This document shows positions 14,131 through 36,412 of a stretch of DNA of 64,000 bases, in pieces. The notes beneath the pieces are model-generated. The model did no database searches, was not told the origin of the DNA, and saw only the letters and a list, made by a program, of their open reading frames with translations. The stretch spans positions 11,997-75,996 of the forward strand of contig JAQUKT010000001.1 in NCBI GenBank assembly GCA_028718945.1, in the 5' to 3' direction. The stretch's first letter is position 1; every line of letters begins with the position of its first letter. The stretch is from Actinomycetota bacterium (GTDB lineage: Bacteria > Actinomycetota > Geothermincolia > Fen-727 > JAQUKT01). The position numbers were made by a program, and so were the translations under genes.

Positions 14131-14162
14131 ATTATCGGGGGTGACCCCATTATCGGGGGCGC
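14127..14162. repeat. 18-nt tandem duplication (CCCCATTATCGGGGGYGM x2) at the element end, overlapping the 3' end of the downstream gene
   Basis: Direct tandem repeat seen in the sequence. It produces the artefactual DPIIGGDPIIGG ORF on the plus strand. Confidence 0.6.
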
Positions 14163-15238
14163 ACTGGCTGGGGGGGTGCCTGAACCCTTATCGGCCAGGG
14201 GCGAAAAGAAATCAGAAAGGCTACGGCAGCCGCTATCGAAAAAACTATTAGCCAGTCCTTGGTGGGAAATTCATGCACAAAAGTCTCGAGCGCATTCTTG
14301 AAATTCTCAATTGTTGGAATGTTGATAATCCTTATGGCCGGGAACCAGACGGTAAGCATATACATAAGTATCCTGCCCGCACTAACGAAAATCATGGAAA
14401 GACCAAGAGCAATCCCTCCAAGGACAAAATTGAAGTGTCTTCCAGAACCAAGAACCACCGCAACGCCAACCACTATGCCAAGTGCCCAGCCGGTAATACC
14501 ATATTCTTTATGTGTCCACCATGCTATGCCCGCATAAGCACCGGAGCAAAGCGCGCCAGCGAGGGCTCCGTACAAAACCGATTTCAAATAAGACGGCTCG
14601 GGCGTTATTTCACCATCATACTCATCGGGCATCTGCATTGATACTATACCCTCACCGGGGATTCTCCTCTTTTTTCTTGGCGCATGCTTTCGTCTTGCTT
14701 CAACCCCCTCAAAAGGCTGTGTTGTGGGGAAACCTTCGGCGGTCAATACCGCCTTCTCTCTCATATCAACAGGAACCGCTCTTCTCTTTTCGCTTTCCGG
14801 AATAACCGGGGGGGCCTTCATAGGTGTTTCCCCAACTATTGCCGCTTGAGGGTGCTCCTTTGCAGACCTCCTTGCTCTTCTCCTGCCACCTTCAAGGTCG
14901 CCCCAGAACATGTCGGCTTCGAGGCTTTTTTCGGGAACACTTTCCATGGGTTTGGTTTCTTTCACAACAGGAACAGTTCCAGAAGGCTTCTCTATTGGCT
15001 TTCTTAAAGCCTTTTTCTCGACCTTCTTTTTCGCCTCTTCTTTGACCCCCGATGCATTTTCCTTCTTAGGCTTTTCCCTCACAACCATCCGGGCGGCAAT
15101 TTTTTCAAGTTCAAGCCTGTGGCATTCGGGGCAGTAGTTGGTGTCACGTGTTTCTATCACGCACTTCCTGCAGAAGTTCGCACCGCACGCCAAGCACGTA
15201 AGTTCAGCCTCGTTACCTGGATGCCATTTGCATTCCAA
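14150..15238 (-). CDS. Zinc-ribbon membrane protein (N-terminal CxxC zinc ribbon, Pro/Lys/Glu-rich linker, C-terminal 4-TM domain)
   Basis: N-terminal CKWHPG...CLACGANFCRKC...CPEC cysteine array, a low-complexity charged middle, and a hydrophobic C-terminal ~150 aa. Last gene of the sigma/repeat-protein block. Confidence 0.55.
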   Translation of the reverse strand: MECKWHPGNEAELTCLACGANFCRKCVIETRDTNYCPECHRLELEKIAARMVVREKPKKENASGVKEEAKKKVEKKALRKPIEKPSGTVPVVKETKPMESVPEKSLEADMFWGDLEGGRRRARRSAKEHPQAAIVGETPMKAPPVIPESEKRRAVPVDMREKAVLTAEGFPTTQPFEGVEARRKHAPRKKRRIPGEGIVSMQMPDEYDGEITPEPSYLKSVLYGALAGALCSGAYAGIAWWTHKEYGITGWALGIVVGVAVVLGSGRHFNFVLGGIALGLSMIFVSAGRILMYMLTVWFPAIRIINIPTIENFKNALETFVHEFPTKDWLIVFSIAAAVAFLISFRPWPIRVQAPPQPVRPR

Positions 15239-15506: not shown

Positions 15507-18023
15507 TCAAGGGTAAGGCTCGACAGCCGCACTTTTGAAAACACCGTAGCAGTCCGCCCGGTCAATTGGGAATTGTTTTTCGATCAAGGTTTTGAATGTA
15601 ACCCACCTCAACGCGCTTGCCGGATTGCTACCGGATGTATTCATGTTGAGCTGATCTACAAGCTTATGTAGGGCACCCAAACCGGGTTCGGTTCCAAGGG
15701 CAATCATCATCTGGCGAGAAGCTTCAAGTGCCTCGGGCGTTTTCATAGCATCTGCGATATTCTGCATTGCAGTGGGGTTATTCGCAAGCAGGTTAACAAT
15801 TGACATCACAAAGTTTCTTCCGTTAGTCGATTCAAGTATCGATGCAGTAGCCGCAGGATCCCCCTTGCCCATCAAATCACCTATGAAATCGGGGCAAGAG
15901 TTAACAATATTTGCGACTAATTGCGGGTCAATTCCGCCCTCCGCAACCGGTTTTACCAGGTCATATAACATTCCCTTGGGCCCGCCGGGTTCATAGCTCT
16001 TCTTGGTTGCCCTATTCATCGCTTCGTTCAGGGCACCAGCATCGAGATTTGCAATCAGGTTTGTGATAAACGTCTGGTTGTTGTTGATAATCGAGACGAC
16101 AAGGTTTGTGCTTATGCCAAAATCCGGGTCCATTAGTGCCTTCGTAAAATACTTCGTTGCCTCAGGCGATAAAGCCATCTGAGCCGGGTCCATGTTCTTG
16201 ATTACGCCAGAAATAAGCGCTTCTCCAGCATCCGTATTTATGGCGTTGCATAGAACAACGGGATTAAGGTTTGAAAGAAGCCCATCGATGAATGCTCCAT
16301 TGTTATTCACAATATATGCAACAGCCTTAGGGTCAAGAGCCTTCATCATCTTATCGGTGTTTTTCGGGTCTTGGGCGTTTACCACATTTGCTATGACCTT
16401 CGGATTGAGGAATGAGATGAGATTCGTGACAAACTCAATGTTGTTGTTAATGGCAACGGCAGTCCCGCTTGGGTCGAGTTTACCCATGAGTCTTGTAATG
16501 AATGTCTCATTGTTGTTAACCACACCCGCAATTACCTGAGGATTAAGCTTCGAAACCACATTTATCATGAAACTCGGGTCGCCATTCATACTTGAAGCCA
16601 GAGCATCGGCATCCAGTTTCCCTATCAACTTCGTGATAAACGCTCCATTGGCATTCACAACTCCAGCGATAACCGCCGGGTCGAGCCTTGCTAACATTCT
16701 GCTTGTCCACTCCCAGTTCTTGGCGCTCATCTCGTTTATTTTGTCTATATCGAGATACTTGAGAACACCCTTCAAGAATCCTGGATTTGCGTTTATTGCA
16801 ACAGCAGTTCCAGCCATACTCATGTTTCCCATCAAGCCCGACAGGAAAGCGCCATTTGCATTTACCGCATTTGCAATAGGCGTCGGATCAAGTTTTGCAA
16901 GGACCTGACACATCATCTCGGTATTGCTTGAAACTGCCCGTATGAGATCCGTGGAAAGATAACCGACAAGCGAACTTATGAATGGAGCCGAATTGTTCAA
17001 TATGCCCGCTATAACCCCGGGATCCAAATAACCTATCAACTTGGTCGTAAAATCGCTCGTTGTTCCTGTATTTTTCGCAAGTCCTGCAGGGTCCATCTTC
17101 GATATCAATCTCGTGAGAAATGCCTGATTGCTCCCGATTGTAGCAATGAACTCCGGACTTATGTTCATTGCGACATCGTATGTAAATTTATTTGTTTCAG
17201 GAGTTGACATCGAGAGCTGGTCGGGGTCCATATAGGACACAAGTTTCGTCAAAAACGCCTGATTTCCGTTTACCACTCCTGCAATAACTGACGGGTCGAG
17301 ATAACCCATAAGGTCCCGAATCATGTTCACATTACTTGCCATTCCAGCGCTCATACCTTCAGCGTCGATTTTTCCAAGGAGTTCAGTTATCCATGCTCCG
17401 TTGTTGTTGACAACCCCCGCTATTGTATCCGGACTCAGATATCCAACAAGCTCACTTGTAAATGTCGGGTCTGCATTCATGGCCTCAGCGGTAGTCGCGG
17501 GATCCGTATATCGAACAACCTCAACGAGGAAATCTCCATTTGCGTTTATCGCATCCGCGATAACTTTTGCGTTGAGATTTCCCACCAGAGAAGCGATGAA
17601 AGGCCCTGCCTTGTTTACGATTTCCGCGGTGATTTTCGGGTCCCCATTAGCCATCATTTCGTTTATGAACTTCTCGTTTTTATTTACAGCCTCAGCAATT
17701 ACCTTTCCATCGATGTAGCCCAGTAAATCCGAAATCCATTCGGGATTCTCGTTTACCGCGATTGCAGTTCCCTTGGGGTCTGAATACTTCATTACCTCAT
17801 TTATGAACTCAGGGTTATCATTTATCGCCTCGGCAACCGCCTTGACATCAAGAGAGCGAAGCATTGCAGCGGTTCCCTTGGGATTGCTGCTCATCTTTCC
17901 AATCATCTTACCAAGAGGGCTTCGGGTTGGAATGAAACCAACAGCGCCAACTGCCGCAAGTGCAACAACTACAATTAAGACCACCGCATTTACCAATGTT
18001 TGAATGCCCTTGTTATAGATCAT
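15507..18023 (-). CDS. Membrane-anchored 23-residue-repeat protein, paralog 1 (about 30 repeats, consensus LDPxVIAxAVNxNxxFIxxLIxx)
   Basis: N-terminal TM helix, conserved PLGKMIGKM segment, then periodic DPxVIAxxVNxN repeats across 838 aa. Low-complexity antisense ORFs occur throughout. Confidence 0.7.
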   Translation of the reverse strand: MIYNKGIQTLVNAVVLIVVVALAAVGAVGFIPTRSPLGKMIGKMSSNPKGTAAMLRSLDVKAVAEAINDNPEFINEVMKYSDPKGTAIAVNENPEWISDLLGYIDGKVIAEAVNKNEKFINEMMANGDPKITAEIVNKAGPFIASLVGNLNAKVIADAINANGDFLVEVVRYTDPATTAEAMNADPTFTSELVGYLSPDTIAGVVNNNGAWITELLGKIDAEGMSAGMASNVNMIRDLMGYLDPSVIAGVVNGNQAFLTKLVSYMDPDQLSMSTPETNKFTYDVAMNISPEFIATIGSNQAFLTRLISKMDPAGLAKNTGTTSDFTTKLIGYLDPGVIAGILNNSAPFISSLVGYLSTDLIRAVSSNTEMMCQVLAKLDPTPIANAVNANGAFLSGLMGNMSMAGTAVAINANPGFLKGVLKYLDIDKINEMSAKNWEWTSRMLARLDPAVIAGVVNANGAFITKLIGKLDADALASSMNGDPSFMINVVSKLNPQVIAGVVNNNETFITRLMGKLDPSGTAVAINNNIEFVTNLISFLNPKVIANVVNAQDPKNTDKMMKALDPKAVAYIVNNNGAFIDGLLSNLNPVVLCNAINTDAGEALISGVIKNMDPAQMALSPEATKYFTKALMDPDFGISTNLVVSIINNNQTFITNLIANLDAGALNEAMNRATKKSYEPGGPKGMLYDLVKPVAEGGIDPQLVANIVNSCPDFIGDLMGKGDPAATASILESTNGRNFVMSIVNLLANNPTAMQNIADAMKTPEALEASRQMMIALGTEPGLGALHKLVDQLNMNTSGSNPASALRWVTFKTLIEKQFPIDRADCYGVFKSAAVEPYP

Positions 18024-18064: not shown

Positions 18065-20527
18065 TCAAAACGGACCCACTGGCTGACCAGCTGTCGTGCA
18101 AAGTCGAGCATCAACAATCTGGGTCCACCCCTCAATGTTAATCAAGCCCAAAAGCTGCAGCTGGCCAAAACTCCATATCTTCGTTATTGCATTGTCCTCG
18201 TGATGCCCGGTAGGTCCATGTATTACTTCCACTATGGTTTGTGGTGATATTCCGCCCGCGTTTTTGTTCAATAGCCCACTGATGAAGTTCCCGCTTTGTT
18301 CAAGTATGGGCGCTGTTCCATCCGGGTCCATACTTGCCATCAATGAACTTATGAAGTTTGTGATATCGGGTGCATCTTCAAGAATAGTCATGAGAATATT
18401 TGGGTCTATCCCTTGAGGAGGCGGAGCGAGCATCGCTTCCATCATTTCAGGATGCGCCCCCATCGCTTGAGCAAGAACATCGGTATCAAGATAACCAAGA
18501 AGTTTCTGAATCATCGGGATAACAGCCGGATTGTTGTTGAGGGTATCGGTGATGTCCGCGGTGTTTGAAAGCTCTGACATCTTAGCGATGAAATCTCCAT
18601 TTAGATTTATTGCGTTGGCTATGACAGCGGGATTCATATGACTCACCAAGTTTGAAATCCAGGTTGCGTTCGTATTCAATAGGTCTGCTATCATGTACGG
18701 GTCAAGGGCACCAGGTTGCAAGAGGCGCTCAACAAAATCGGTGTCGCTCATCTCAATTGAATTCGGATCTATACTTGCTATTACGCCCGTCAGAAATGCC
18801 TGATTGTTGTTTATTGCATAGGTTACTGTTTCTGGCTTTATCTCATGTAACAGACTGGTAATGAACTCCTTGTTCTCATTGATCATCTTTGCGGTTCCCT
18901 TTGGGTCCATTTTGTTCATCAGGTTCGTTATGAATGTCTGATTAGCGTTAACAACGCTTGCAATTACCGCCGGATCAAGATATTTGAGCATATCGCTCAT
19001 CATTTGCGGGTTTGCATTCACCGCGTTGGCAATAACAGTAGTGTTCAGGTTCTTGACCAGATTTGTAATGAATGTTCCATTGGAGTTTACAACCCCGGCT
19101 ATTACCGATGGATAAAGATACTTTGTTATATCAGATGCTGATCCAGTACTCGAATTCACCACAGCGGCAATGACAGCAGGGTCGAGCTTACTCACAAGAG
19201 CAGTCAAGAAATTACCCGACTGGTTGACGCTTTTTGCAGTTGCATCGACGGACATGAGCGGCATCATCTCTCCAATCCAGTTAGTATTAGAATTTACTAT
19301 TCCCGCTATGACCTTTGGGTCAAGCGCCGCAAGAGTTCCAGCCATCAAGTTACTCGTCGCATTCATCGCATTTGCTATCGCAACCGGATTGAGACGCGCT
19401 ATGACATCGGTCAAGAATTTCTCATTCTTCAAAACGGTTACCATCATGTCGGGGTCAGCGTTCCCGCTTGCGGCAACTATGAAATCGATGTTGTTGTTCA
19501 AAACGCTCGCAATAACTGTCGGGTCGAGTGAGTTTATCAAGCCAACCGCAAATCCCCCGATTTGATTCACGAGCCCTCCTATTGAAGCAGGAGAAAGCTT
19601 TTCCATCAACTTCGATGTTGAGGAAGTGTTGTTTACGACGGCGCTCAAAAGCTCAGGGGAAATATTTTCAAGCACGCCGCTAACGGTATTCGCGCTTCTA
19701 TTTACTATTCCCGCTATCACAACAGGGTCGAGTTTCTTTATCAAATTGATGCTCATCTGGGGGTCCTGGCTTGTTGCTCTTGCGATAATCTCTGGATTCA
19801 GTTTCCCCAATAGTTCAGTTATGAAGGGACCATTCTGGTTGACGATATCGGCAATCACATCGAGATTAATGTAGTTTATTACCTCTGAACTTGCGCTGGT
19901 ATTGGAGTTCATCAGGTTCGCTAAAACATCCGTTGATATAAGACCTACCGTCTCGCTGAGGAAAGCCTCGTTTCCGTTTACTGCGTCAGCAATTACCTTC
20001 GGGTCTATGTATGAGGTGACCTTATTCATGAACTCCGTATTGCCCACACCGCTTGTCGCTAATTTTTTCGCGTCAAGCTCACCAATCAGTTCTGTAATGA
20101 ACTTCCCGTTGGCATTTACCGCTCCGGCAATTACCTTCGGGTTCAAGTAATTGAGAAGCTCAACGACGAAATCCGTATTCGCATCCATGCCCTCACTCAT
20201 TGCGGAGGGGTCCATATAACTTATGAGCTCTGTAATCCACTTGCCATTCTTGTTTATAGCATCAGCAATAACTTTCGGGTCGAGAGCGGAAAGGGTTTTC
20301 GACATCATCGTCGGGTCCGCATTCATCGCGTTGGCAAGAACCTTCGGGTCAAGCTGCGAAAGTAAGCCGGATATCAAACCTTTCTGGCTTGCCATCTTTC
20401 CCATCAGCACGCTCAGAGGTGGATTCGAACTGGGTATCATCATGGTCACGCCCAAAATGAGCGATAGCAATAATGCCATAATTATTACTATATTTATAAG
20501 CCCTTGAACTCCTCTTGAAAGTAACAT
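18065..20527 (-). CDS. Membrane-anchored 23-residue-repeat protein, paralog 2
   Basis: 820 aa. Same architecture as paralog 1 (TM helix, PLSVLMGKM segment, repeats of exact 23-residue period). Confidence 0.7.
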   Translation of the reverse strand: MLLSRGVQGLINIVIIMALLLSLILGVTMMIPSSNPPLSVLMGKMASQKGLISGLLSQLDPKVLANAMNADPTMMSKTLSALDPKVIADAINKNGKWITELISYMDPSAMSEGMDANTDFVVELLNYLNPKVIAGAVNANGKFITELIGELDAKKLATSGVGNTEFMNKVTSYIDPKVIADAVNGNEAFLSETVGLISTDVLANLMNSNTSASSEVINYINLDVIADIVNQNGPFITELLGKLNPEIIARATSQDPQMSINLIKKLDPVVIAGIVNRSANTVSGVLENISPELLSAVVNNTSSTSKLMEKLSPASIGGLVNQIGGFAVGLINSLDPTVIASVLNNNIDFIVAASGNADPDMMVTVLKNEKFLTDVIARLNPVAIANAMNATSNLMAGTLAALDPKVIAGIVNSNTNWIGEMMPLMSVDATAKSVNQSGNFLTALVSKLDPAVIAAVVNSSTGSASDITKYLYPSVIAGVVNSNGTFITNLVKNLNTTVIANAVNANPQMMSDMLKYLDPAVIASVVNANQTFITNLMNKMDPKGTAKMINENKEFITSLLHEIKPETVTYAINNNQAFLTGVIASIDPNSIEMSDTDFVERLLQPGALDPYMIADLLNTNATWISNLVSHMNPAVIANAINLNGDFIAKMSELSNTADITDTLNNNPAVIPMIQKLLGYLDTDVLAQAMGAHPEMMEAMLAPPPQGIDPNILMTILEDAPDITNFISSLMASMDPDGTAPILEQSGNFISGLLNKNAGGISPQTIVEVIHGPTGHHEDNAITKIWSFGQLQLLGLINIEGWTQIVDARLCTTAGQPVGPF

Positions 20528-20581: not shown

Positions 20582-23350
20582 CTAAAAACCTGGTGGCTTA
20601 GCCGTCGAAGAGTACTTCGTCCACAGATTCTCATCCATAGTAACCCACCCAATAAAAGTGTGAGCTTTTGCCGTCGTCGTAAGGCGCAAATTCTTCATTA
20701 GGGTTGGGTCATCCTCGAGCGTCGAGCACAGTACAATCGGGTCAAGTTTGGCAAGCAATTCGGGCAGAAGCTGCTGGTTCGAGTTTATTGCATCGGCAAT
20801 TACCCGCGGATCGAGATTCGCAAGCAACCGACCTGTCATCTCGGGATGCTTCCCCATCGCCTCAGCAAGAACAGCCGGGTCGAGGTAACCCGGACTTATA
20901 AGCGTTTTAATCAAATCCATGGTATTAGGTTGGTTAATAAGATCAGCCGTAATGCTCGGGTCACTGGTTCCCATGAACTCGGCAATGAAACTCCCGTTCG
21001 CGTTTATCGCATTTGCTACCACCTGAAGTGCGCTTGGATTAGCATCGAGCGCGGCAATTATCCTCCCCACAAAATCATTCGACCCCTGCTCGAGATGAAG
21101 TTCATGCTGCACATCCACCATTGCCTGTACATCGGTGCTTGCTATCATCTCACGAATAAACCCGGGATTTTCGTTTACAGCAGATGCAATCCTTTCGGGG
21201 TCGAGCCCTGAAATCAAATTCGAAAGGAATGCTTCGTTGTTGTTTACTGCCTCACCTATGACCTCGGCATCGAGGTTGTTCATCAAAGCAGTTGTGAAAG
21301 CGGTTGCTTCCTCACTTGCCCTGGTAAGAACAGCCGGGTCAAGGTATTTGATGACATTCTTCAAGAAAACCTTGTTCGCGTTTACCGCGGACGCTATCGC
21401 TGCCGGCGATAAGTATGGAAGCATCTTTGAGGTTGAATCGGGATTCGCGTTCATTGCGTTTGCAATTACCTGAGCGTTGAGATATTTCAAAAGATTTTTT
21501 ATGAACGTCGCGTTCGAGTTTATTATTGCCGCTGTAGTTGATGGGTCTCCTTTGCTCATTACTTTCGAAATGAATGGTCCATTCGAGTTTATGACACTTG
21601 CAAGCATGGCTGGATTCAGTTTCCCAACAAGAGCGGTTATGAAGGGTCCATTCTTGTTTACTATTTTCGCGGTAACTTGGGGGTCGCTCTTCGACATCAT
21701 CTTCTTCAAGAACTCGCCTGAATCGTTTACCACGCCAGCAATAACACTCGAGTCGAGATTGTCGAGAAGTTCCTTTGTCGAGTTTGGATTCGCACTCATT
21801 GCATCCGCAATCACCTTCGGATTCAGTTTTGGCAATAGGGAATTTATAAACGCGACATTCCGGTTGAGAATTGTTGCCGTTGCGGCAGGGTCCCCGGCAC
21901 TCATAACTTTTATGAGGAATTCCTGATTGTTGACTATCGATGCGACAAGGTCTGGCGATATTCCGCCAACAACCGCATAAACGAAATCCTCCTGTTGTTT
22001 GTCCATTGGCTTGGTCAGCTCAGCCGGGTCGAGATTCCTCACAAGTTCAGTCATGAACGCACCGTTTGCATTGAGCGCGCCGGCAATCGCAGCCGGGTTG
22101 AGCGCGCCAATTACCTTGAGCATGAATCCCTGGTTGTTTATGATATCCGCCATCACTGTCGGGTCTGCCGAGTTCACTACCTGAACGATAGTACTCACAT
22201 TTCCATTTATTATCCCTGCTATCACATTAACATTGAGATGAGAAACAAGCCTTGCTATCCAGTCTCCATTCGCATTCACCGCGTTCGCGATAGGAGTCGG
22301 ATCTGAGCTTCGCATCATTGCCATCAGGAAAGCTTCGTTCGAATTCACTACATTCGCTATCACGGTTGGATCAAGCCTTCCCAATAGAGCGCCAATGAAT
22401 GGACCATTGTTATTGACAATATATGCTGTTATCTTGGGGTCTGAATACTGCATCATCGCCTGAAGGAATGGACCGTTTTCATTCACAACATCAGCAACAA
22501 CAACAGGCGATATGTAGGAGATTAGATCAGTAATGAATTTGCCGTTCTCGTTTACTATATAGGCAATCACCTGTGGGTCGAGATATTTCATCAGGTCATT
22601 GCTCATTTCGGGATTTGCTGTTATTATCTCTGCAAGCATGGCTGGGTCGAGATTCCTGATAATATCTGCTATGAGTTTTCCATTTTTGTTTATCGGATAA
22701 GCCAAAGCTTTCGGCTCAAGCAGAGAAATAAGCTTCGTGCTCATCTCTGGATTCGCACCCATCGCATCAGCAATAACCTTTGCAGGAAGTGCGGAAATCA
22801 GTTCAGAAATAAATTCGGGGTTTTCATTCAGTGCCTTCGCCGTTGCCTTCGGATCTCCGCTTGTCATAATTCCCTCGAGGAGATATCTGTGATTCGCGAT
22901 TTCTCCGATCATTTTTCCCAAAGGAGTTTTATCTACCGGAACAATCGCGAATCCAGCAAATAGAATGGTGAAAAGAAGTCCTATTATCACCACAACATTC
23001 ACAAGTGTCTGAAGGTGTGGACCAAGTAGAAAGCCCCCTCCTGGTTGCGGCGCCCGTGCCTTTGCCCTGACCTGAGTAATTTCCGGCCTCGGAGCAACTT
23101 TGGGTGCAATCTGAACTTTTGCTTCGGCGCCAAGAGCGAGTACTTTCTGCCTGTACTCCTGCCTTGCGCGTGCCTGCATCGAAGGATGTTCGACAGAACT
23201 TATAGTTAGCGCTGTCTTGAGGATGAACTCTACCTCCGCTCTATCCTTTTGCTTAGCAAGGAGACTCTCGAGCTTTGTTCTATCCTTCGAAACTGCATCA
23301 AGAAGCTTATCAATCAGGTTGGCTGAACTATTGTCATCCAAGCTAACCAC
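20582..23350 (-). CDS. 23-residue-repeat protein, paralog 3, with ~130-aa cytoplasmic N-terminal domain and single TM (anti-sigma-factor-like architecture)
   Basis: 922 aa. Helical charged N-terminal domain, then TM (LVNVVVIIGLLFTILFAGFAIV), then PLGKMIGEI and the repeat array. Immediately downstream of the ECF sigma gene. Confidence 0.65.
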   Translation of the reverse strand: MVSLDDNSSANLIDKLLDAVSKDRTKLESLLAKQKDRAEVEFILKTALTISSVEHPSMQARARQEYRQKVLALGAEAKVQIAPKVAPRPEITQVRAKARAPQPGGGFLLGPHLQTLVNVVVIIGLLFTILFAGFAIVPVDKTPLGKMIGEIANHRYLLEGIMTSGDPKATAKALNENPEFISELISALPAKVIADAMGANPEMSTKLISLLEPKALAYPINKNGKLIADIIRNLDPAMLAEIITANPEMSNDLMKYLDPQVIAYIVNENGKFITDLISYISPVVVADVVNENGPFLQAMMQYSDPKITAYIVNNNGPFIGALLGRLDPTVIANVVNSNEAFLMAMMRSSDPTPIANAVNANGDWIARLVSHLNVNVIAGIINGNVSTIVQVVNSADPTVMADIINNQGFMLKVIGALNPAAIAGALNANGAFMTELVRNLDPAELTKPMDKQQEDFVYAVVGGISPDLVASIVNNQEFLIKVMSAGDPAATATILNRNVAFINSLLPKLNPKVIADAMSANPNSTKELLDNLDSSVIAGVVNDSGEFLKKMMSKSDPQVTAKIVNKNGPFITALVGKLNPAMLASVINSNGPFISKVMSKGDPSTTAAIINSNATFIKNLLKYLNAQVIANAMNANPDSTSKMLPYLSPAAIASAVNANKVFLKNVIKYLDPAVLTRASEEATAFTTALMNNLDAEVIGEAVNNNEAFLSNLISGLDPERIASAVNENPGFIREMIASTDVQAMVDVQHELHLEQGSNDFVGRIIAALDANPSALQVVANAINANGSFIAEFMGTSDPSITADLINQPNTMDLIKTLISPGYLDPAVLAEAMGKHPEMTGRLLANLDPRVIADAINSNQQLLPELLAKLDPIVLCSTLEDDPTLMKNLRLTTTAKAHTFIGWVTMDENLWTKYSSTAKPPGF

Positions 23351-23485
23351 TTCCTACCTCTCCACAAGCAAACCCAAAAAATTATCGCTCGAATAATAAT
23401 AACGATTTTGACTCTCAAAGGATACTGGTTTTCCTCAAAAAAGCGTGAAATTCACATGGGTAAATGGAACCGGCACGAAGTGAAA

Positions 23486-24052
23486 TCAGAGGAAACTTGA
23501 AGGACTCGACTGGGAAAGTATTCTGTTTAGGGCAAAAAGACCTCTTTTCTGAGTGGATTTGACTGCACCAACTGATACACCCATAATCTCTGCAATCTGA
23601 GCGTTAGAAAGATTATCGATAAACTTGAGAACTATTACTTCGCGCTGGTTGTGAGTGAGTCTTTGAAGGGCAAGATAGAGTCTTTCACTATCGAGGTCTG
23701 CCATTGCAGTTTCCATTGGATTGCCTTTCGCAGCAGGAGTAGGCGACTGCTCGTCAATAGGAACATTCTCCCTTCTTGACTCACTTCTGAAAAAATCAAC
23801 AGCGAGATTGTGCGCAATTCTGAAAAGCCATGACGAAAATGATACATCACGAGTCTCGTAGTATTGAATATTCTCGAACGCTTTCAAGAAGGTCTGTCCT
23901 GTAAGGTCCTGTGCGTCATTCTGATTTCCAACCTTGTAATAAATATATCTGAATATCTGATCAACATATTCATCGTAAAGCTCCCCAAATGCCTCCGGGT
24001 CGCGTTCTTTTGCTCTCTTCACAAGGTTTTGAATAGCGCTCTCTCTGGACAT
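23486..24052 (-). CDS. ECF-type RNA polymerase sigma-70 family factor
   Basis: 188 aa. Region 2 (DLTGQTFLKAFENI...WLFRIAHNLAVDFFR) and region 4 HTH (NAQIAEIMGVSVGAVKSTQKRG). Confidence 0.85.
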   Translation of the reverse strand: MSRESAIQNLVKRAKERDPEAFGELYDEYVDQIFRYIYYKVGNQNDAQDLTGQTFLKAFENIQYYETRDVSFSSWLFRIAHNLAVDFFRSESRRENVPIDEQSPTPAAKGNPMETAMADLDSERLYLALQRLTHNQREVIVLKFIDNLSNAQIAEIMGVSVGAVKSTQKRGLFALNRILSQSSPSSFL

Positions 24053-24317
24053 ACATGCTCCGTTCTACGAAAAAACTTATGCCCCTCCTGTCAGTCTATT
24101 TAACTTAAGTAAAAAAGCGTTAACCGAAGTATACTATACTTAAAAAAATTTTCAAATTTTTTTGTCAACACAAATGAATGGCACTCCCAATAAGCTGCAA
24201 ATAGTTCGCAACGGATGATACTCAAAAGTGTCAAATTTGAATATCACCCGACAAGAGCAGCTTTTACCTTAGAAAGGAGCTTGTTCCTTCCTCACGAAAC
24301 GAAGCCCATTGCTTTCC

Positions 24318-27300
24318 TCACCAGAGAGGAAACCCTATCACGTCATGCCCACCAGTCCAGCCATAGAAATCAAAATACATCGGTCGTTCGACGATTATTC
24401 CTTTATTATCTTCCCCGAGCGCAACCACTTTGGCGCCAGCATCCTTGCCCCAGCCAATAGAACCGTTCACATCAACCGTCACTCTTGCGTGACCGGGCAC
24501 AGCTAATTTCTGCTCCTTGTTCTCCCCACCGGTCAGCATGTAGGTTATTCTTACCTCGGCTTCCTTGTCACCCGGGTTCTGGATACTCAACCATTCCTGG
24601 AATCCTTGCATAGTTGTTCCCTCTGCAAAGTACCACTGAGAAGCAGTTGAATTTGCACCTATTACATCATGCCCCCCGGTTATGCCAACATAATCGAAGT
24701 AAATCGGGCGCTCGGCAATTATCGGCTGACTCGAGGTAATGCGCGCGGAAACATCATGCTCCCTTTCAACTGCACCATGAACATCTACTGTAACCCTGGA
24801 AGTCCCCAATACACTCAAGCTCTGAGCCTTGGTTTCACCAGTTTCAAGCATGTATGTAATCTTCACATCAGCCACATAGGTTCCAGGATTCAACAGGCAA
24901 ATCCATTCATCGAATCCCGAACGAGTGGTGCCCTCGGCAAAATACCAGGTCTCTGAAGGCGAAGTCGCGCCCATGCAGTCGTGTCCGCCAGTCCACATAT
25001 TTTTGTAGTTGAAATACATCGGTCGCTCGGCAACAATGCCTACATCCGAGGTAACCTTCGCGGCGCAATCAACTCCCGGTCCAAGGAACTGCTTGGCACT
25101 GATTGTTCTCCTCGACTTCGCAGGAACTTTAACGCCCTGAGCTCTTGTTCCTCCTCCGGTAAGCATATACTTGATTTCAACCGCCGCTTCATGTTCAGAA
25201 GGATTTTGGAGGCATATCCATTCCTCAAACTCGTCTCTGGTATTACCCTCAGCGAAATACCATTCTTTCGATGCACCAACAGCCCCCATGACATCGTGTC
25301 CGCCTGTCCATACTCCGTTATAGTTGAAATACATGGGTCGCTCGGCAACTATTTGTTTGTCAGAATCCACCCTTGCAGAAACATCCTTCTCTTTGCCAAC
25401 CACATCCTCCACGCGCACGGTCAGCCTGCTTTTAGCCGAGACCTCGAGCTCATGAGTCTGGTTGGGACCCTCCGAGAGCATGTAAGTGATGGTCACGCTT
25501 GCAGCAGTATCATTGGGGTTCATCAAGCAAATAAATTCCTGGAACCCCTGCCTCGTGGTCCCTTCTGCGAAGTAGAAAGTCTTGGGAAGAGTAACCGAAA
25601 ATTGGATTCCGTTCGATGTTCCAACTGGAGTTGTAATTGTCACATTACCCGTTTTTGCCCCCATAGGAACTTTTGCCCTTACGCTTGAATCAGACCATGA
25701 TTCCACATCAATGGCATCAACATTAGCGAACCTAACCTTGCTCGTGCCCTGCTCATCACCAAAGTTCTTCCCGCTCACAGTAACAGAGATTCCAGCAGGA
25801 CCGTTCAAAGGTGAAACCGATGAAATGTATGGACCTGCGGTGAACTGAACAGAATTGCTTTGCCCACTCGGCGTTGTAACTATTACTCCCCCGCTTGTCA
25901 CAGCCGCTGGAACTCTTGTCTCTATCTTCGTTTTCGACCAGGATTTTGCCTTTCCGGCATCCACACCCGCAAACGTTACCTTGCTCGAGCCCTGTGTCTC
26001 GCCGAAAGTGAATCCATTTATTGTGACAATCGTGGTTCCCGGTATCCCGCTCGATGGAGAAATAGATGTTATCTTTGGCAGAACCTTGAAGGATTTTTGG
26101 TTGCTTTCAACATCGTTGACAGTAACAATGACCGAGCCACTGGTTGCTTTTGCCGGAACACTTACAGTTATCTTAGTTGATGTCCAGCCTTCCACCTGAG
26201 CAGGTTCCCCATTGAATTTCACCGTGTTCGAACCCTTTGAAGCGCCAAACCCGGTTCCATTGATTGTTACGGAATCGCCAACTCTTCCTTCGGATGAACT
26301 CAACCAGTCGATAACCGGTGTAACGTTGAAGGGAATCAAATTGCTTTCTCCGTAAAGAGTCTGAACCTTCAATTGACCGCTTGTTGCATTCTCGGGAACA
26401 TTCACCACAATCCTGTTGTAGCCCCAGGTTGATGCGGTTCCAGAATCCACATTGTTGAAATATACCTTCCCATTTGCGCCCTGCACTTCCCCGAATCCAG
26501 AGCCATCTATGGTGACTGAATCCCCCACTTTTGCAGTTGTCGTTGAAGTTCCCGAAATCCAGGGGGTTATGCTCAAAACCGGGTCTTGCGTGCTTGCACT
26601 CGAGTTTCTCAAAACCCGAACAGGTCCAGTCCATGGCTGGAAAACCGCGGGGTCATCAGGAATCTTGAACTTGATATTTGTGTTATTCCATGAGACCATA
26701 AAGGCTTCCGGAACCATCTCGAGGCTCACATTTCCATCTTCATCCATCTTCTGCATTTTCACGCAGTTGTTAGGGTCATAAGGAAGTGGACTTGTCCCGA
26801 AATTCCCGCCATTTATCTCGATTTCATCACCGGTCTTGCCCGAGTCGGGTGAGAGTTTCTCAATCTTCGGGATGACATTGACATTCAATGGTGGTGCGCT
26901 CTCCTTTCCACCCGCTGTAACCGTCACTGGAACACCAATTCCTGGCTCTATATCAGGGGGAAGAGTGAACTTGATTTCCGTACGCGTCCAGGACGTGAAG
27001 CTCCCATCTGGAATCTGCCCGCCATTTACCTTTACATTGTTCGTATCGGTGCTTCTATTCCCTGAACCAGGGTCATTACCAAAACCGGTTCCGGTAATTG
27101 TAACCGCTGTTCCGTATGACATTTGCGTTGGGCTCACGTTAGTAATATTCGGAAGAACTGTAAAGGTAACACCATTTGAACTCCCCCCGTCATGAACAAC
27201 ATGAACATTTCCAGTAATGGCATTGTTCGGAACAACCGCTTTTATCTCGGTGCCGGTCCATGTATTAATTGATGCCTCCGTTTCACCACCAAAATATACA

Positions 27301-30300
27301 TGACCGTTCACGCTTGGCTGGCCCGCGCCGAAACTCGAGCCATTTATGGTTACCTCGGTGCCCGTTACCCCATTGCCTGGAACAAGTGGAGGAGTTATTA
27401 CCGGAGCGGCAAGGCTCTGGCTACAAACCTGAATTCTCCCAAAACTGCCGCATGAATATGCCTTTATCCTGTCAGTATCCCAGATGCTCGAGATGCCCAT
27501 AAGAGACCTGTTGACGCCCGTAGCGCTTTCAATTTCACCCCATGTTCCGCCTCCATTTGAAGTATAAAGCGCGCAGGCGGGCTCAGTTACAGCCGGGCTG
27601 GCTCCAACAATGAGGCCATTTCTTGTATCAGAATGCCCCGGGGCGCCAAAGGAAACTCCAAAAAGTTCATCGCTTACAGGACCTTCCTGAAAAACCCAGT
27701 TGTCTCCACCATCATCCGAGTACCAGATTGAGCCTCCTTCTCCAACTGCCCAGACATCGCTTTTACCGCCCATTGAGACATCATTGATTTTCACAGAGCC
27801 AGCGGGGGGATTTGCAGGAGTCTGCCAGGTTGCTCCTCCATCATCCGTCCACCTCACGCTTTCCGTGCTTCCCGCGGTTCCCCCAACCGCAACTCCACAT
27901 TCTTCGTCGAAGAAATCAACCGCTCTTAAATTCGCGGTTGGATTGCTCTCCTGTTCTGTCCATGTATCCCCTGAATCCGCGGAAATCCATATATGCCCGT
28001 TATCACCAACAGCCCATGCGTGAGTTGAATCTATGAAATCAACAGAGCTCAAATTATTTGAAACAGGCGGACTTGTTGCAGGTGACCATGTTTGACCGCC
28101 ATTGGAAGTTCTTCTGACAGTTGCGTTATCTCCAACCGCAATGCCTCGATAGACACCACCATCAAGATACATTGACACATCATTGAGATTCTTGTCTGTA
28201 ACGCTATCAGAGGGCATCCAGGTTGCCCCCGCGTCGGTCGTATAAAGAACAACTCCCTTTTCCCCGCAGGCAATTCCATTGTTTGCATCCGCAAATGACA
28301 TTCCATTGAGGTTATTCGCGGGGCCCTGAAGGAAGTTCCAGTTTGCGCCCTTATTCGTGCTACCAATTATCGTTCCATAATCCCCGGAAGAAAAGGCCCT
28401 TGAGAATGCTGATTCAAACCAGGAAGCGCGAAGATCGTTCCTGTTGAAACTCGACCCTGCGTCCCAGTTTGCTCCACCATCGCTCGTATAGTAAATATTA
28501 CCATCCGAGCCAACCGTTACTCCCTCGAAATTTGGTATAGCTCCATTGTAATCAATCGAGATATCCCTCAGGTTAACCGTTCCGGGAACAGCTCCCTGAG
28601 GATTCCAGGTTACACCGTCCCAGCATAGAACGGTTCCGGAATCTCCAGCCGCCCAGACATTATTCGAGTCATAGGCATCAATGCCATAAAGAGGAGGAAT
28701 CCCAGCAGCAAGCTCCTGATTGAAGGTTATGCCGCCATTTGTTGTGTGACAGATGATTCCTCTGGAAGAATCCTCGAAGCCAACCTCGAAGCCAACTGCG
28801 TAGAAATTGGAGGAATCAACAAAATCGGAAGCGAAAAGAGCGGAGGGAGATGGTATCTCGGAAATTGTATTCCACGTATTACCATCTGTGCTCCTTATTA
28901 TTGTCCTTACTTCTCCCACAGCCCAGCACTGATAGTTCACTCCATCATGAAGGGCAGAAACCGCGTTCAAACGATTGTTTGTCTGTGAGGTTTGCTCCGC
29001 CCAGTTATCGCCGTTATTGGTGCCCCCATATACCTTCCCACCATCCCCAACAACCCACGCGTAGTTATTCGTGGAATCTCCAAACTCAACTCCTCTCAAG
29101 TTATTGGCAGTTGAAGGAGGAGCCGCAGGGTCAGCCCAGTTCTGACCTCCGTTCGTGGAACGAATTACCCGTCCGTTTTCACCGCAGGCAATTCCTTGAG
29201 TTAATGAAACAATGTCAACACCAAAAAGGTCATCCGTATGCCCGCTCGAGGAGGCATTCCAGTTTGCTCCATTATTGTTTGTGAACCTTACGACGCCATT
29301 TGAACCAACTGTAGAGCCCGTATCATTTGAACCATTGTTACAAAGTGAAATTCCATAGAGGTCTTCAGTTGTCCCCGAAGTTTGCGTTTGAAACGCTACG
29401 TTATAGTGAAGTATGAATCCGGAGGAACCACAGAACCAGCCCTCGATAGCAGTAGGAAATGATATGTCATAAATTGTGTTCGTTGCTTGAAGGACGCTCA
29501 ATGTGTTCCATGTCGAGCCATCGGAAGTACTTATGACCAGCCGCCCGTCACCAACCGCGAATCCCGCAGGTCCTGAATACATCGAGATTCCCCTCAATTC
29601 AAGAGATGTCCCGCTCGTTTGTGGACCAACAGTTCCATTAAGATAGCGATAGAGCATCCCAGCCTGACCGCAAATCCATCCATTGCTCGAGTCGGTGAAA
29701 TCAAGAGCGAGGAAATCGTTTGTCGTTTTTTGAACCCCGGAATAAAGCGCCCATGAAGAACCCCCACTGTTTGTCCAAGCCATGAGCCTGCTCTCACCAG
29801 CAATGACTCCAGCACTCGCGTCCGTGAAATCAATCCCGTACAGGTTATTCGATGTCGGACTCGTTATTACTGACCATGTGCCATCCCTTCCTACGATGGT
29901 TCCATCTTGACCGCAGGCAAAAGCATTGTTCGAGGATACTGCGGAGACCGATTCGAGATTTTTCGTGGTGCTGGAATTCTCTTTTGTGAAAAGACCATTT
30001 CTCGCAAGATAAACAATTCCAGAATTTCCAACCACCCATCCGTATTTAGAAGCAGTATCAAAATCAATTCCGTTCAAGTTGTCCGTTCCCTCCAAGGATG
30101 AGATTTTCGTCCATCCTGGACCCGTTGAATCGTACTTCCACATCGTCCTGTTCATACCGGAAGCAAAAGCAAGTGAAGCACTTGAGAACGATATCCCCGT
30201 AAGGTCCCTTGTTCCCGAATCCATACTGACTGGAGAGCCAAATGATCCACCCGTGATGGGAACCCTGTAGCCCTCGGTTCCGCTTCCGCCAACCGCAAAG

Positions 30301-32774
30301 CCGTTACCGGACACGAGGTCTAAGTCGTAAAGATTTGGGGTTGGCGGTCCAACCTGAGCGGGAGCCTGCCATACACCAGCGAGAAGCTGAACATAATAAC
30401 CATTTGCACCAACCGCGTATCCATTCGCGGCATCGGAAAGATAAACGGAATTCAAATCGGGGGTTGGGGCTCCAACCTGAGCGGGAGCCTGCCATGCACC
30501 AGCGAGAAGCTGAACATAATAACCATTTGCACCAACCGCGTATCCATTCGTGGCATCGGAAAGATAAACGGAATTCAAATCGGGGGTTGGGGCTCCAACC
30601 TGAGCGGGAGCCTGCCATCCACTAAGGTATTGAATTGTAATTCCATTTTCACCGACTACATATCCATTGTTAGAATCCACGAAATAGACTGAATTTAATT
30701 TTTCAGAAGTCCACGCCGTGGTGTTGAACTCAATGGAATAATTAGTGCCATCATAATGAATAATCGTTCCTCCACTTCCTACCCAGTAAGCCGTGCCATC
30801 GGGGAGAGAAAAAACATCCTCGAGGTCAACGAGGCTCCAGTGGGGAGTAGCAGAAGAACCATCGAGGGTCTGCCATACAGTTCCTCCCTCTCCAACAGCC
30901 CAGCCAACATCCTTGTTGAGAAAATCTACGGAGAGAAGATTTGTGGCACCAGGGGTTGAAGCGGGATTTCTATCCGTCCACGTGGCAGTTGCGGGAATGT
31001 GAGTCGCCTGCCTTATATGACCACCATCTCCAACCCAAGTAATGTAATAAGTTCCAGGACTTCCGCTATCCTCGACGATTGAGACATCCCTGTTTGAGAA
31101 AGCGCCATCAGCAACAGGATTCCACACCGTCGCGCCGCCATCATTCGTCCAGACCGCCGCCCCATTCTGCCCGACAGCGAATACATAATTCGTTCCATCT
31201 CCCCCAACCTCAACCGCACGCAGGTTCTCTGGAGTTCCAGAATCCTGAGCTTTCCAGGTATTCCCATCTCTCTTTATGATTGCTCCGCCGCCACCAACAT
31301 AGTACTCGATGTCTGCATCGGGTTTTGCCACATCGTAAATGTCAAAGGGACCCCAGGTAGTGCCATTCCTCGTCTGCCAGATACCACCATCCCAAGCCGT
31401 AGCAAACCAGATTCCCGTTGTTTTAGAGAAAGAGACATCAGTGAAATTTGTGGTTCCAACTCCACTCGCATTTGTCCAGTTTGCCCCTCCGTTCGATGTG
31501 TATGCCAGAGTTCCGGAAAGTCCGGCAACATAGCCGCTCGCAGCGCTCTCGAACTCAACTCCAAGCAAATCCTGAGCAGGAGGTGGACCAACAGGGGTAG
31601 ACCATGCAGCAGGAGTGCCACCGGGTGGCGCGTCAGTTGTGTAGAAAAGAGCGCCTCCATCGCCACAAGCCCATACGAGATAATTTCCGCTTCCGCCTGA
31701 ATCATTGTAAACAAAAACATCATTGAGATTTGCAGCAAGTGCGGGACCCGCATTCCAATTAGAGCCACCATCTGTGGTATAAAGATTCACATTGTTTTCG
31801 CCAACAGCCCAGCCATAGTTCGCATTTATGAAATGAATGCCATTCAAATTACTTGTTGTGGTGCTATTCTGAACGGTCCATGAAGAGCCATCATAGAATA
31901 GGATTAGCCCGCGCTGTCCGGCAATCCAGGTGTGTGTTGAATCAAGAGAAAAAACGGCATTTGCCCCGAAATCAGAACTCCACGTGGTTCCCCCATCAAC
32001 AGTGTGAAGAATCGTTCCATCTTTTCCTCCAACCCAGGCTTCATCTTGAGATATCGCAAAAACGGAATTGAGTCTTTTCGTTGTCCCGCTTGCCTGAAGG
32101 CTCCAGGTTGTGCCCCCATCATTCGTCGCGATAATCACGCCGCCGTCCCCGACTGCCCATCCATTGTTAGAGTCAGCAAATGAGACATCGAGTAGGGCCA
32201 TGCTCGACCAGGATGCTCCTCCATCCACAGTCTTCATCACGATTGGCGACCAGGTCGAGGGCTTTTCTAAATCAAGCATATTCGCGCCAACCACTATGGC
32301 TTCAGTGTCGCTCGGCGCGAATACATCAAAGAAAACATTGGTGGTTTCTCCCATATAAACTATGTTCCATGTCCCAACACCAGTTGAATCCGTACACTTT
32401 GATATCAATCCCGAATCTCCAACTGCATAGCCAAGATTGGGACTGCGAAAGTAAACGCCACGAATTGTCAATAGATGAAGGAAAGGATCGTCGCCGACCC
32501 TTTGCCCCGTCCAGGTTGTACCACCATCAGTTGTATGCCAGCAATCGTAGAAGGTGGTTCCATCCAGTGATTGCTGCGGTTGTCCAACCGCCCAGCCCTC
32601 AACTCCGCCGGGCAAGAAGAAAATGTCTTCAAAATGGCTTTCAATAAGATCCTCCCTTTGAGGAGACCATGTGCCAGCAGCGGAAGCCGGAGAGAAAGAA
32701 AGCAAAGCCAGCAAAGAAGCACACAAGACCAAAGACAACAATGAAGTCCTTCTAAACCTTCTAAATACCTTCAA
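24318..32774 (-). CDS. Giant secreted protein (2818 aa): signal peptide, multiple Ycf48/BNR-type beta-propeller regions, 7 IPT/TIG domains, 4 C-terminal ~105-aa repeats of unknown family
   Basis: N-terminal signal peptide ending SPASAAG. Dozens of T/VDGGxTW Asp-box-like motifs. IPT-like P-x-I-x-x-S-P-x-x-G-x-x-G-T-x-V-T-I-x-G-x-x-F-G units. Four repeats starting WYFAEGTTRxGFxEWICLxNP and ending GGHDVxGA. Confidence 0.8.
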   Translation of the reverse strand: MKVFRRFRRTSLLSLVLCASLLALLSFSPASAAGTWSPQREDLIESHFEDIFFLPGGVEGWAVGQPQQSLDGTTFYDCWHTTDGGTTWTGQRVGDDPFLHLLTIRGVYFRSPNLGYAVGDSGLISKCTDSTGVGTWNIVYMGETTNVFFDVFAPSDTEAIVVGANMLDLEKPSTWSPIVMKTVDGGASWSSMALLDVSFADSNNGWAVGDGGVIIATNDGGTTWSLQASGTTKRLNSVFAISQDEAWVGGKDGTILHTVDGGTTWSSDFGANAVFSLDSTHTWIAGQRGLILFYDGSSWTVQNSTTTSNLNGIHFINANYGWAVGENNVNLYTTDGGSNWNAGPALAANLNDVFVYNDSGGSGNYLVWACGDGGALFYTTDAPPGGTPAAWSTPVGPPPAQDLLGVEFESAASGYVAGLSGTLAYTSNGGANWTNASGVGTTNFTDVSFSKTTGIWFATAWDGGIWQTRNGTTWGPFDIYDVAKPDADIEYYVGGGGAIIKRDGNTWKAQDSGTPENLRAVEVGGDGTNYVFAVGQNGAAVWTNDGGATVWNPVADGAFSNRDVSIVEDSGSPGTYYITWVGDGGHIRQATHIPATATWTDRNPASTPGATNLLSVDFLNKDVGWAVGEGGTVWQTLDGSSATPHWSLVDLEDVFSLPDGTAYWVGSGGTIIHYDGTNYSIEFNTTAWTSEKLNSVYFVDSNNGYVVGENGITIQYLSGWQAPAQVGAPTPDLNSVYLSDATNGYAVGANGYYVQLLAGAWQAPAQVGAPTPDLNSVYLSDAANGYAVGANGYYVQLLAGVWQAPAQVGPPTPNLYDLDLVSGNGFAVGGSGTEGYRVPITGGSFGSPVSMDSGTRDLTGISFSSASLAFASGMNRTMWKYDSTGPGWTKISSLEGTDNLNGIDFDTASKYGWVVGNSGIVYLARNGLFTKENSSTTKNLESVSAVSSNNAFACGQDGTIVGRDGTWSVITSPTSNNLYGIDFTDASAGVIAGESRLMAWTNSGGSSWALYSGVQKTTNDFLALDFTDSSNGWICGQAGMLYRYLNGTVGPQTSGTSLELRGISMYSGPAGFAVGDGRLVISTSDGSTWNTLSVLQATNTIYDISFPTAIEGWFCGSSGFILHYNVAFQTQTSGTTEDLYGISLCNNGSNDTGSTVGSNGVVRFTNNNGANWNASSSGHTDDLFGVDIVSLTQGIACGENGRVIRSTNGGQNWADPAAPPSTANNLRGVEFGDSTNNYAWVVGDGGKVYGGTNNGDNWAEQTSQTNNRLNAVSALHDGVNYQCWAVGEVRTIIRSTDGNTWNTISEIPSPSALFASDFVDSSNFYAVGFEVGFEDSSRGIICHTTNGGITFNQELAAGIPPLYGIDAYDSNNVWAAGDSGTVLCWDGVTWNPQGAVPGTVNLRDISIDYNGAIPNFEGVTVGSDGNIYYTSDGGANWDAGSSFNRNDLRASWFESAFSRAFSSGDYGTIIGSTNKGANWNFLQGPANNLNGMSFADANNGIACGEKGVVLYTTDAGATWMPSDSVTDKNLNDVSMYLDGGVYRGIAVGDNATVRRTSNGGQTWSPATSPPVSNNLSSVDFIDSTHAWAVGDNGHIWISADSGDTWTEQESNPTANLRAVDFFDEECGVAVGGTAGSTESVRWTDDGGATWQTPANPPAGSVKINDVSMGGKSDVWAVGEGGSIWYSDDGGDNWVFQEGPVSDELFGVSFGAPGHSDTRNGLIVGASPAVTEPACALYTSNGGGTWGEIESATGVNRSLMGISSIWDTDRIKAYSCGSFGRIQVCSQSLAAPVITPPLVPGNGVTGTEVTINGSSFGAGQPSVNGHVYFGGETEASINTWTGTEIKAVVPNNAITGNVHVVHDGGSSNGVTFTVLPNITNVSPTQMSYGTAVTITGTGFGNDPGSGNRSTDTNNVKVNGGQIPDGSFTSWTRTEIKFTLPPDIEPGIGVPVTVTAGGKESAPPLNVNVIPKIEKLSPDSGKTGDEIEINGGNFGTSPLPYDPNNCVKMQKMDEDGNVSLEMVPEAFMVSWNNTNIKFKIPDDPAVFQPWTGPVRVLRNSSASTQDPVLSITPWISGTSTTTAKVGDSVTIDGSGFGEVQGANGKVYFNNVDSGTASTWGYNRIVVNVPENATSGQLKVQTLYGESNLIPFNVTPVIDWLSSSEGRVGDSVTINGTGFGASKGSNTVKFNGEPAQVEGWTSTKITVSVPAKATSGSVIVTVNDVESNQKSFKVLPKITSISPSSGIPGTTIVTINGFTFGETQGSSKVTFAGVDAGKAKSWSKTKIETRVPAAVTSGGVIVTTPSGQSNSVQFTAGPYISSVSPLNGPAGISVTVSGKNFGDEQGTSKVRFANVDAIDVESWSDSSVRAKVPMGAKTGNVTITTPVGTSNGIQFSVTLPKTFYFAEGTTRQGFQEFICLMNPNDTAASVTITYMLSEGPNQTHELEVSAKSRLTVRVEDVVGKEKDVSARVDSDKQIVAERPMYFNYNGVWTGGHDVMGAVGASKEWYFAEGNTRDEFEEWICLQNPSEHEAAVEIKYMLTGGGTRAQGVKVPAKSRRTISAKQFLGPGVDCAAKVTSDVGIVAERPMYFNYKNMWTGGHDCMGATSPSETWYFAEGTTRSGFDEWICLLNPGTYVADVKITYMLETGETKAQSLSVLGTSRVTVDVHGAVEREHDVSARITSSQPIIAERPIYFDYVGITGGHDVIGANSTASQWYFAEGTTMQGFQEWLSIQNPGDKEAEVRITYMLTGGENKEQKLAVPGHARVTVDVNGSIGWGKDAGAKVVALGEDNKGIIVERPMYFDFYGWTGGHDVIGFPLW
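30346..30627. repeat. Near-identical 123-bp tandem repeat (2 full + 1 partial copy) inside the giant gene
   Basis: Copies start at 30346, 30469 and 30592 with only a handful of mismatches. Each encodes the 41-aa unit WQAPAQVGAPTPDLNSVYLSDATNGYAVGANGYYVQLLAGA in frame. Confidence 0.85.
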
Positions 32775-34096: not shown

Positions 34097-34186
34097 GTTA
34101 CGAAAATAATAGGTGACAAAACACCAATTGACACTCGCTTCAGTGGCTGCTAAAATTTTGCTTGTATTGCTTCTAAGGGAAGTTAA

Positions 34187-35401: not shown

Positions 35402-35476
35402 AAGAGCATAAGTTTGACTTCAATTGAAACGCAAGAATAGTTAGCAACTTTTTCGACTCTAACGAGAGGAGAGACT

Positions 35477-36409: not shown

Positions 36410-36412
36410 CAT

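Follow-up and report, generated by a model that had tools for sequence, protein, structure and literature searches.

We analysed a stretch of 64,000 nucleotides (hereafter the window) of contig JAQUKT010000001.1, from an Actinomycetota bacterium of the Geothermincolia lineage. We focused on a gene cluster in which the gene of an extracytoplasmic function (ECF) sigma factor is followed by the genes of three long repeat proteins, A (A922), B and C, and by a variable last gene, D (Table 1). Judging from the sequences compared here, the cluster probably encodes a BldN-type ECF sigma factor together with its cognate membrane-anchored anti-sigma factor, the candidate for which is A922. On the best reading the two form a BldN/RsbN-like pair, in which the outer domain of the anti-sigma factor would be a new kind of alpha-solenoid and which is accompanied by two co-expressed paralogs lacking an anti-sigma domain.

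Architecture of the three repeat proteins

Hydropathy analysis gave a single strongly hydrophobic segment in each of the three proteins, which spans residues ~112-139 of A but residues ~6-31 of the two others. A preliminary description of this DNA had reported that two of the paralogs begin almost at their transmembrane (TM) helix, which is the case, and that only the sigma-adjacent one carries an extra N-terminal domain of ~130 residues. The domain is present in A, but its length is ~111 residues, the larger figure including the TM helix. These ~111 residues consist of a conserved helical domain of 75 residues, named N-dom here, and a variable linker of ~33 residues. The extension is conserved at 40-60% amino-acid identity among orthologues, and the GTG start of A, with its Shine-Dalgarno sequence (GGAGAGG/AAGGTAGG), is kept in 12 loci. 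This conservation of sequence and start context shows that the extension is real and not a gene-calling artefact. Three stops lie in the read-through frame that runs from the sigma factor gene across the intergenic region into A. The gaps before B and C measure 54 and 41 nt, which leaves no space for an N-terminal extension of either protein.

Beyond its TM helix A comprises 783 residues. The repeats take up residues ~165-885 of the protein, and a non-repeat tail of ~37 residues, modelled with low confidence, closes it. The ~780 residues of 23-residue repeats of the preliminary description were recovered, and the same periodicity was found in all three proteins, with self-identity maxima at lags of 23, 46, 69, 92 and 115 in A, B and C and the repeat consensus xLDPxVIAxAVNxNGxFIxxLxx. 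In the full-length AlphaFold2 (AF2) model of A the repeats appear as an unbroken array of paired ~10-residue helices, with a predicted local distance difference test (pLDDT) score of 70-90. This model makes the ectodomain an alpha-solenoid to which every 23 residues contribute one helix-turn-helix. Like the ARM/HEAT and the designed helical-repeat alpha-solenoids, it is a long stack of helix pairs in antiparallel arrangement; however, the repeats of the HEAT/ARM families are ~40 residues long versus 23 in A, and A corresponds to them neither in repeat-model match nor in repeat length. A Pfam and NCBIfam scan of A, B and C returned no meaningful family, the weak matches to HTH_69, MgtE_N and XopAD falling in the repeats. 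The 23-residue repeat family has no Pfam model and would be a new one.

The TM helix of A is flanked by four Lys or Arg residues on its N-terminal side and by two on its C-terminal side, and export of a charged 111-residue N-terminus devoid of a signal sequence is unlikely. The topology of A is therefore most likely N-in, which would place the solenoid outside the cytoplasm. An alignment of the TM helix in 13 family members showed N118 to be invariant and Q114 to be nearly so (at least 90%). In all 13, A, B and C included, the helix is followed by a juxtamembrane IPxxxPLG motif, with P138 and P143 invariant; the stretch from Q114 to P143 of A lies at window positions ~22922-23011. Polar residues within TM helices often drive helix-helix association, and the conserved Gln and Asn suggest that the three paralogs associate via their TM helices. 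The proteins of this family end, after a non-repeat segment of ~40 residues modelled with low confidence, in short motifs rich in Pro and aromatic residues (..KPPGF, ..PVGPF, ..VEPYP, ..SFAPW, ..YPYPW; for A, window positions 20585-20620), which possibly serve as a signal for sorting or interaction.

Table 1. Position of the genes, protein parts and regulatory elements in the window
Feature	Position	Strand	Description
Protein D	14150..15238	-	362 residues; variable last gene of the cluster
Paralog C	15507..18023	-	838 residues; TM helix and 23-residue repeats, no N-dom
Paralog B	18065..20527	-	820 residues; TM helix and 23-residue repeats, no N-dom
A (A922)	20582..23350	-	922 residues; GTG start; first of the three repeat paralogs
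C-terminal tail of A (residues 886-922)	20585..20695	-	non-repeat; ends ..KPPGF, aromatic/Pro-rich; pLDDT <50
Alpha-solenoid of A (residues ~165-885)	20696..22858	-	~31-33 copies of the 23-residue helix-turn-helix repeat; predicted extracytoplasmic
TM helix of A (residues 112-138)	22937..23017	-	from hydropathy; helix 112-135 in the AF2 model
Linker of A (residues 79-111)	23018..23116	-	Ala/Pro/Lys-rich, variable in the alignment; pLDDT <50, predicted disordered
N-dom (A residues 4-78)	23117..23341	-	conserved cytoplasmic four-helix domain; candidate anti-sigma domain
Putative ECF-type promoter of the A-B-C operon	23401..23428	-	-35 CCAGTATCC (GTATC 23425-23421), 16-nt spacer, -10 CGTT (23404-23401)
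ECF sigma factor	23486..24052	-	188 residues; Pfam Sigma70_r2, Sigma70_r4_2
Putative promoter and leader of the sigma factor gene	24085..24160	-	sigma70-like TTGAAA-16-TATACT (promoter scan, 24155-24128), then palindrome-like element
Giant secreted protein	24318..32774	-	2818 residues; PSII_BNR x8, TIG x6, DUF5719 x3 (Pfam); directly upstream of the sigma factor gene
Tad/Flp-pilus genes	33317..37312	+	TadZ/CpaE-like ATPase, TadA, two TadB/C T2SSF proteins; divergent from the giant gene

The sigma factor and the relatives of N-dom

Among the NCBIfam models, TIGR02952 ('BldN family') ranked first for the sigma factor of the window with 176 bits, the next model reaching 108 bits. As this score is below the equivalog cut-off of TIGR02952 (206.45 bits), the protein is a member of the BldN clade and not an equivalog; the Kribbella orthologue of BldN, with 183 bits, also falls short of the cut-off. 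Pfam recognised Sigma70_r2, Sigma70_r4_2 and Sigma70_r4, corresponding to sigma2 and sigma4 domains only. The closest relative in the PDB is Streptomyces venezuelae BldN (6dxo_A, E 1.2e-29), followed by SigW (9e-24). The sigma factor is common: orthologues with 67-78% identity were found in ~95 clusters, from metagenome-assembled genomes (MAGs) that bear the labels Geothermincolia, Anoxymicrobium or 'Actinomycetota bacterium', and an NCBI MAG encodes a protein identical to that of the window.

Twelve independent sigma-linked loci were compared (the window, L001/2, L003/4, L008/9, L011, L012, L014, L015, L016, L018, L019 and L020), whose sigma factors share 70-78% identity. Wherever the locus of an orthologous sigma factor includes enough downstream DNA, a gene of type A bearing N-dom lies 110-270 nt downstream, in most cases with B and C after it. 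This repeat family also occurs as triads that have no sigma factor gene in view (L005/6, L007 and L010; the contig of L007 stops 454 nt upstream of the triad, so that a sigma factor gene is possible there), and none of their members has N-dom. In-frame stops just upstream of these genes rule out missed N-terminal extensions. Within the sigma-linked clade, proteins A, B and C each fall into a clean orthogroup, and the sigma-less clade has three orthogroups of its own; the orthogroup analysis did not resolve a one-to-one orthology between A, B and C and genes 1, 2 and 3 of the sigma-less triads. From these orthogroups and the pattern of co-occurrence we conclude that the triad is a conserved unit and that N-dom tracks the sigma factor. 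Members of the repeat family are rare: 10 homologues came out of a word-seeded search. One Anoxymicrobiaceae MAG codes for a single, longer A-type protein of 1037 residues (L014:10731-13844), with modA directly downstream and neither B nor C.

Only 17 representatives were retrieved in a profile search of 1.84 billion proteins with N-dom. In three of the proteins found with this profile (P0142, P0146 and P0147), 2-6 tandem N-terminal modules precede a TM helix, after which comes a DUF5667 domain. By hhalign, these modules match N-dom over 73 columns with a probability of 97.7% and an E-value of 1.7e-12, and on this sequence evidence N-dom is homologous to the N-terminal modules of DUF5667 membrane proteins. 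The gene of P0146 is located 7 nt, and that of P0142 5 nt, downstream of ECF sigma factor genes, whose products are 39-43% identical to the sigma factor of the window; for the L091 sigma factor, the sole one of this pair that was scanned, TIGR02952 was again the top model, with 168 bits. The DUF5667 (PF18915) proteins thus share with A922 a homologous cytoplasmic module, one TM helix and a position directly after a BldN-clade ECF sigma factor. They differ from it by their 2-6 module copies, A922 having one, and by a DUF5667 ectodomain with Pro/Thr-rich tails. Pfam found no DUF5667 in A922, so that the shared part is the N-terminal module only. A literature search found no publication on DUF5667. 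The strongest argument that N-dom is the sigma-binding part is that the same module heads two unrelated single-pass membrane proteins, both encoded just after sigma factors of the same clade.

RsbN, the partner of BldN, has been reported as restricted to Streptomyces. It is encoded next to bldN and has a cytoplasmic N-terminus of 117 residues, a TM helix at residues 118-139 and an ectodomain of 272 residues; it grips BldN by three helices, defines class III of the anti-sigma factors and has no similarity to other anti-sigma factors or to any known protein (PMC6101532). A separate, BldN-dependent promoter serves rsbN, and the divergence of RsbN-like proteins is far faster than that of BldN (PMC4255298).

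A922 resembles RsbN in that its gene adjoins that of a BldN-clade sigma factor and in its layout, a cytoplasmic N-terminus of ~110-120 residues and one TM helix before an ectodomain. It differs from RsbN in several respects. The sequence similarity between N-dom and RsbN is marginal, and four helices are predicted in N-dom versus three in RsbN. The ectodomain of A922 comprises ~780 residues of 23-residue solenoid repeats, compared with ~270 residues in RsbN and with DUF5667 in the Kribbella counterparts described below. The A922 system, unlike that of RsbN and sigma-BldN, includes two paralogs without an anti-sigma domain that are predicted to be co-transcribed, and its host belongs to a non-mycelial, deep-branching lineage of the Actinomycetota, unlike S. 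venezuelae (RsbN; PDB 6C03/6DXO; PMC6101532).

The genome scan with the sigma factor of the window also returned ~60 Kribbella loci, whose sigma factor shares 74% identity with BldN over sigma2. In these loci (L023-L090) the downstream gene encodes a protein of 390-408 residues with the layout of RsbN, which has hydrophobic or basic residues at several of the published RsbN contact positions (A11, F14, V18, I46, V50, R63, L64, L65 and A68). The ectodomain of these positional counterparts of RsbN contains DUF5667 (Pfam, E 7e-12). Their N-terminus resembles the modules of the DUF5667 proteins (hhalign, E 5e-4, a score reached by none of 200 column-shuffled controls) and, weakly, N-dom itself (P 0.049, 4 of 200 shuffled controls reaching the score). 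Although each of these links is weak individually, together they lead us to favour N-dom as a putative divergent domain of the RsbN type (class III).

Promoters and gene neighbourhood

The intergenic region between the sigma factor gene and A contains the motif CCGTATCT-N15-CGTT, that is GTATC, 16 nt and CGTT, ~50-75 nt upstream of the GTG of A. The motif GTATC-N16-CGTT is present in 12 of the 12 sigma-A intergenic regions, with an invariant spacer. It matches once in the 64-kb window, both strands included, and since ~0.7 matches would be expected there by chance, it is conservation, not enrichment, that constitutes the promoter evidence. At the equivalent place of the Kribbella bldN-rsbN intergenic region, TCGTAACC-N17-CGTT (CGTAAC-N17-CGTT) is perfectly conserved in ~59 loci, and it was this alignment that served to judge promoter likeness; the GTATC-N16-CGTT motif resembles it. 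An ECF sigma factor with BldN-like specificity would seem to target the A-B-C operon directly, as BldN does rsbN. The scan showed no terminator-like site between the sigma factor gene and A, and read-through of the sigma transcript into A is possible.

The GTATC..CGTT motif is absent upstream of the sigma factor gene. Alignment of 12 upstream regions revealed instead a leader with a conserved sigma70-like -10 element (TATAGTATACT), a palindrome and a conserved GATAACTGAAGGCAC stretch. Most orthologous loci have the palindrome as AAGTTAAC-N6-TTAACTT, the window in a less perfect form; it resembles an operator, placed in the sigma leader, to which a repressor would bind. No Rfam family was found in the sigma leader or in the intergenic region.

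The order of the giant gene and the sigma factor gene is the same in L001 and L002, and the giant protein has near-identical internal repeats. The sigma-less triad of L005/6 is preceded by a different DUF5719 protein, a Peptidase_S8. DUF5719 surface proteins may be functionally linked to the repeat triads. Tad-pilus genes also adjoin the sigma factor gene in L004 and L008. On the other side of the cluster, the genes beyond D in the window are for molybdate transport and MoeA.

Alternative explanations and proposed mechanism

The alternative that survives best, although we consider it unlikely, is that N-dom does not bind the sigma factor. The A-B-C genes would then be a structural regulon, much as the chaplins are the structural output of BldN, N-dom would be a cytoplasmic adaptor in assembly, localisation or secretion, and the true anti-sigma factor would be encoded elsewhere or not exist. 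The ECF-type promoter of A-B-C, the triads that occur without a sigma factor in other lineages and the non-specific fold matches of N-dom are all compatible with such a regulon. Orphan soluble proteins resembling N-dom, encoded away from sigma factor genes, also point this way: L093:2643-2888 and L095:1910-2203 code for small proteins of 81 and 97 residues with little else, and their neighbours are GreA/nitroreductase and RRM/peptidase S9 genes. An adaptor role fails, however, to explain why N-dom is present exactly where a sigma factor gene adjoins, or why the same module is found on DUF5667 proteins translationally coupled to sigma factors of the same clade, and the cluster holds no other conserved anti-sigma candidate. 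A hidden Markov model of N-dom, run against all open reading frames of 90 loci, had matches confined to proteins of the A type and, in L091/L092, to the DUF5667 protein, and matched none of the Kribbella, Magasanikbacteria or Dehalococcoidia partners.

Less probable still is that A922 acts as an anti-sigma factor by way of a divergent class I domain of the RseA, RsiW or RskA type. The membrane-bound class I proteins (RseA, RsiW, RskA, RslA; zf-HC2) share with A922 a cytoplasmic sigma-binding domain, one TM helix, an extracytoplasmic sensing domain and a gene next to that of an ECF sigma factor, and it was this classic layout that the preliminary description had recognised. The single-TM layout and the co-occurrence with the sigma factor stand, but neither model nor fold searches lend support to a class I domain. 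With E<=1, the N-terminus of A matched no Pfam or NCBIfam model, and neither the class I sequence models (zf-HC2/RskA/RsiW type) nor the HxxxCxxC motif were found in it. Residues 1-111 contain no cysteine, so that N-dom is not a zinc-binding anti-sigma (ZAS) domain. The AF2 model of N-dom alone, built from a 21-sequence alignment (mean pLDDT 81, predicted template modelling score 0.50), has helices at residues 8-22, 24-32, 37-52 and 60-79 and does not superimpose on the class I fold of RseA, RsiW, ChrR or RskA, in which a fourth helix adds to a bundle of three. Residues R63, Y66, Q68, K69, L71 and A72 of the last helix are invariant. Foldseek searches with N-dom in the PDB gave nothing below E 7, and N-dom and its profiles had only chance-level matches to PDB sequences. 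The anti-sigma candidacy proposed in the preliminary description is retained here with an RsbN-like domain as the favoured type.

It is very improbable that protein D is the real anti-sigma factor: although it combines an N-terminal B-box zinc finger (CxxH..CxxC..CxxC..CxxCH; weak Pfam matches to zf-B_box/DUF7564), a long charged linker and ~4 C-terminal TM helices in the same cluster, and although zinc-binding anti-sigma domains are a known theme, its finger is cytoplasmic but not of the HxxxCxxC ZAS type, its gene is four genes away from that of the sigma factor, and, with the sigma factor unchanged, its homologues lack the finger in L003, L004 and L008 and it is swapped for another gene in L012 and L020. 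D with its zinc finger is present in L016, L018 and L019. We rejected it because neither the gene nor the finger is conserved across the loci that keep the sigma factor.

For the BldN/RsbN-like pair we propose the following mechanism. The sigma factor would be made from a housekeeping-type promoter that is probably controlled by a repressor. N-dom of A922 would bind the sigma2/sigma4 domains and hold the sigma factor at the membrane, like the class III domain of RsbN. Once freed, the sigma factor would transcribe A-B-C, and possibly D, from the intergenic promoter. It would thereby make its own inhibitor, a negative feedback comparable to that of the BldN-dependent rsbN, with B and C made alongside. 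The ectodomains of A, B and C, given the shared Gln and Asn of the TM helices and the conservation of the triads, probably form a joint envelope structure, and the assembly state of the solenoid or a ligand bound to it would determine if the sigma factor stays bound to A or is set free, for example by proteolysis of A. In evolutionary terms, the repeat triad would be the older unit, whose first member gained the anti-sigma domain in a Geothermincolia-type lineage.

A broader proposal, by analogy, is offered tentatively. The class III domain may not be specific to Streptomyces; it may head, as N-terminal module, a broad and so far unrecognised family of proteins that partner BldN-clade sigma factors, including DUF5667 proteins in Chloroflexota-like and other bacteria as well as the repeat proteins described here. 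In the present cluster it would be fused to one of three subunits of a membrane-anchored solenoid assembly. The cell would sense how far this surface structure is assembled or occupied, with feedback on transcription of the structure's own genes, a checkpoint at the envelope similar to that of FlgM and sigma-28.

If the reading as a BldN/RsbN-like pair is correct, class III, which so far has one member, would extend to deep-branching Actinomycetota and be joined to the uncharacterised DUF5667 family, which would provide a handle for annotating many ECF sigma factor partners now called 'hypothetical'. The hosts being uncultured, these claims are testable mainly by heterologous expression. The 23-residue helix-turn-helix unit would define a new repeat family, predicted to form an extracytoplasmic alpha-solenoid and typically encoded as three tandem paralogs. 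The sigma-linked and sigma-less triads would represent a natural experiment on the grafting of a sigma/anti-sigma switch onto a pre-existing envelope complex.

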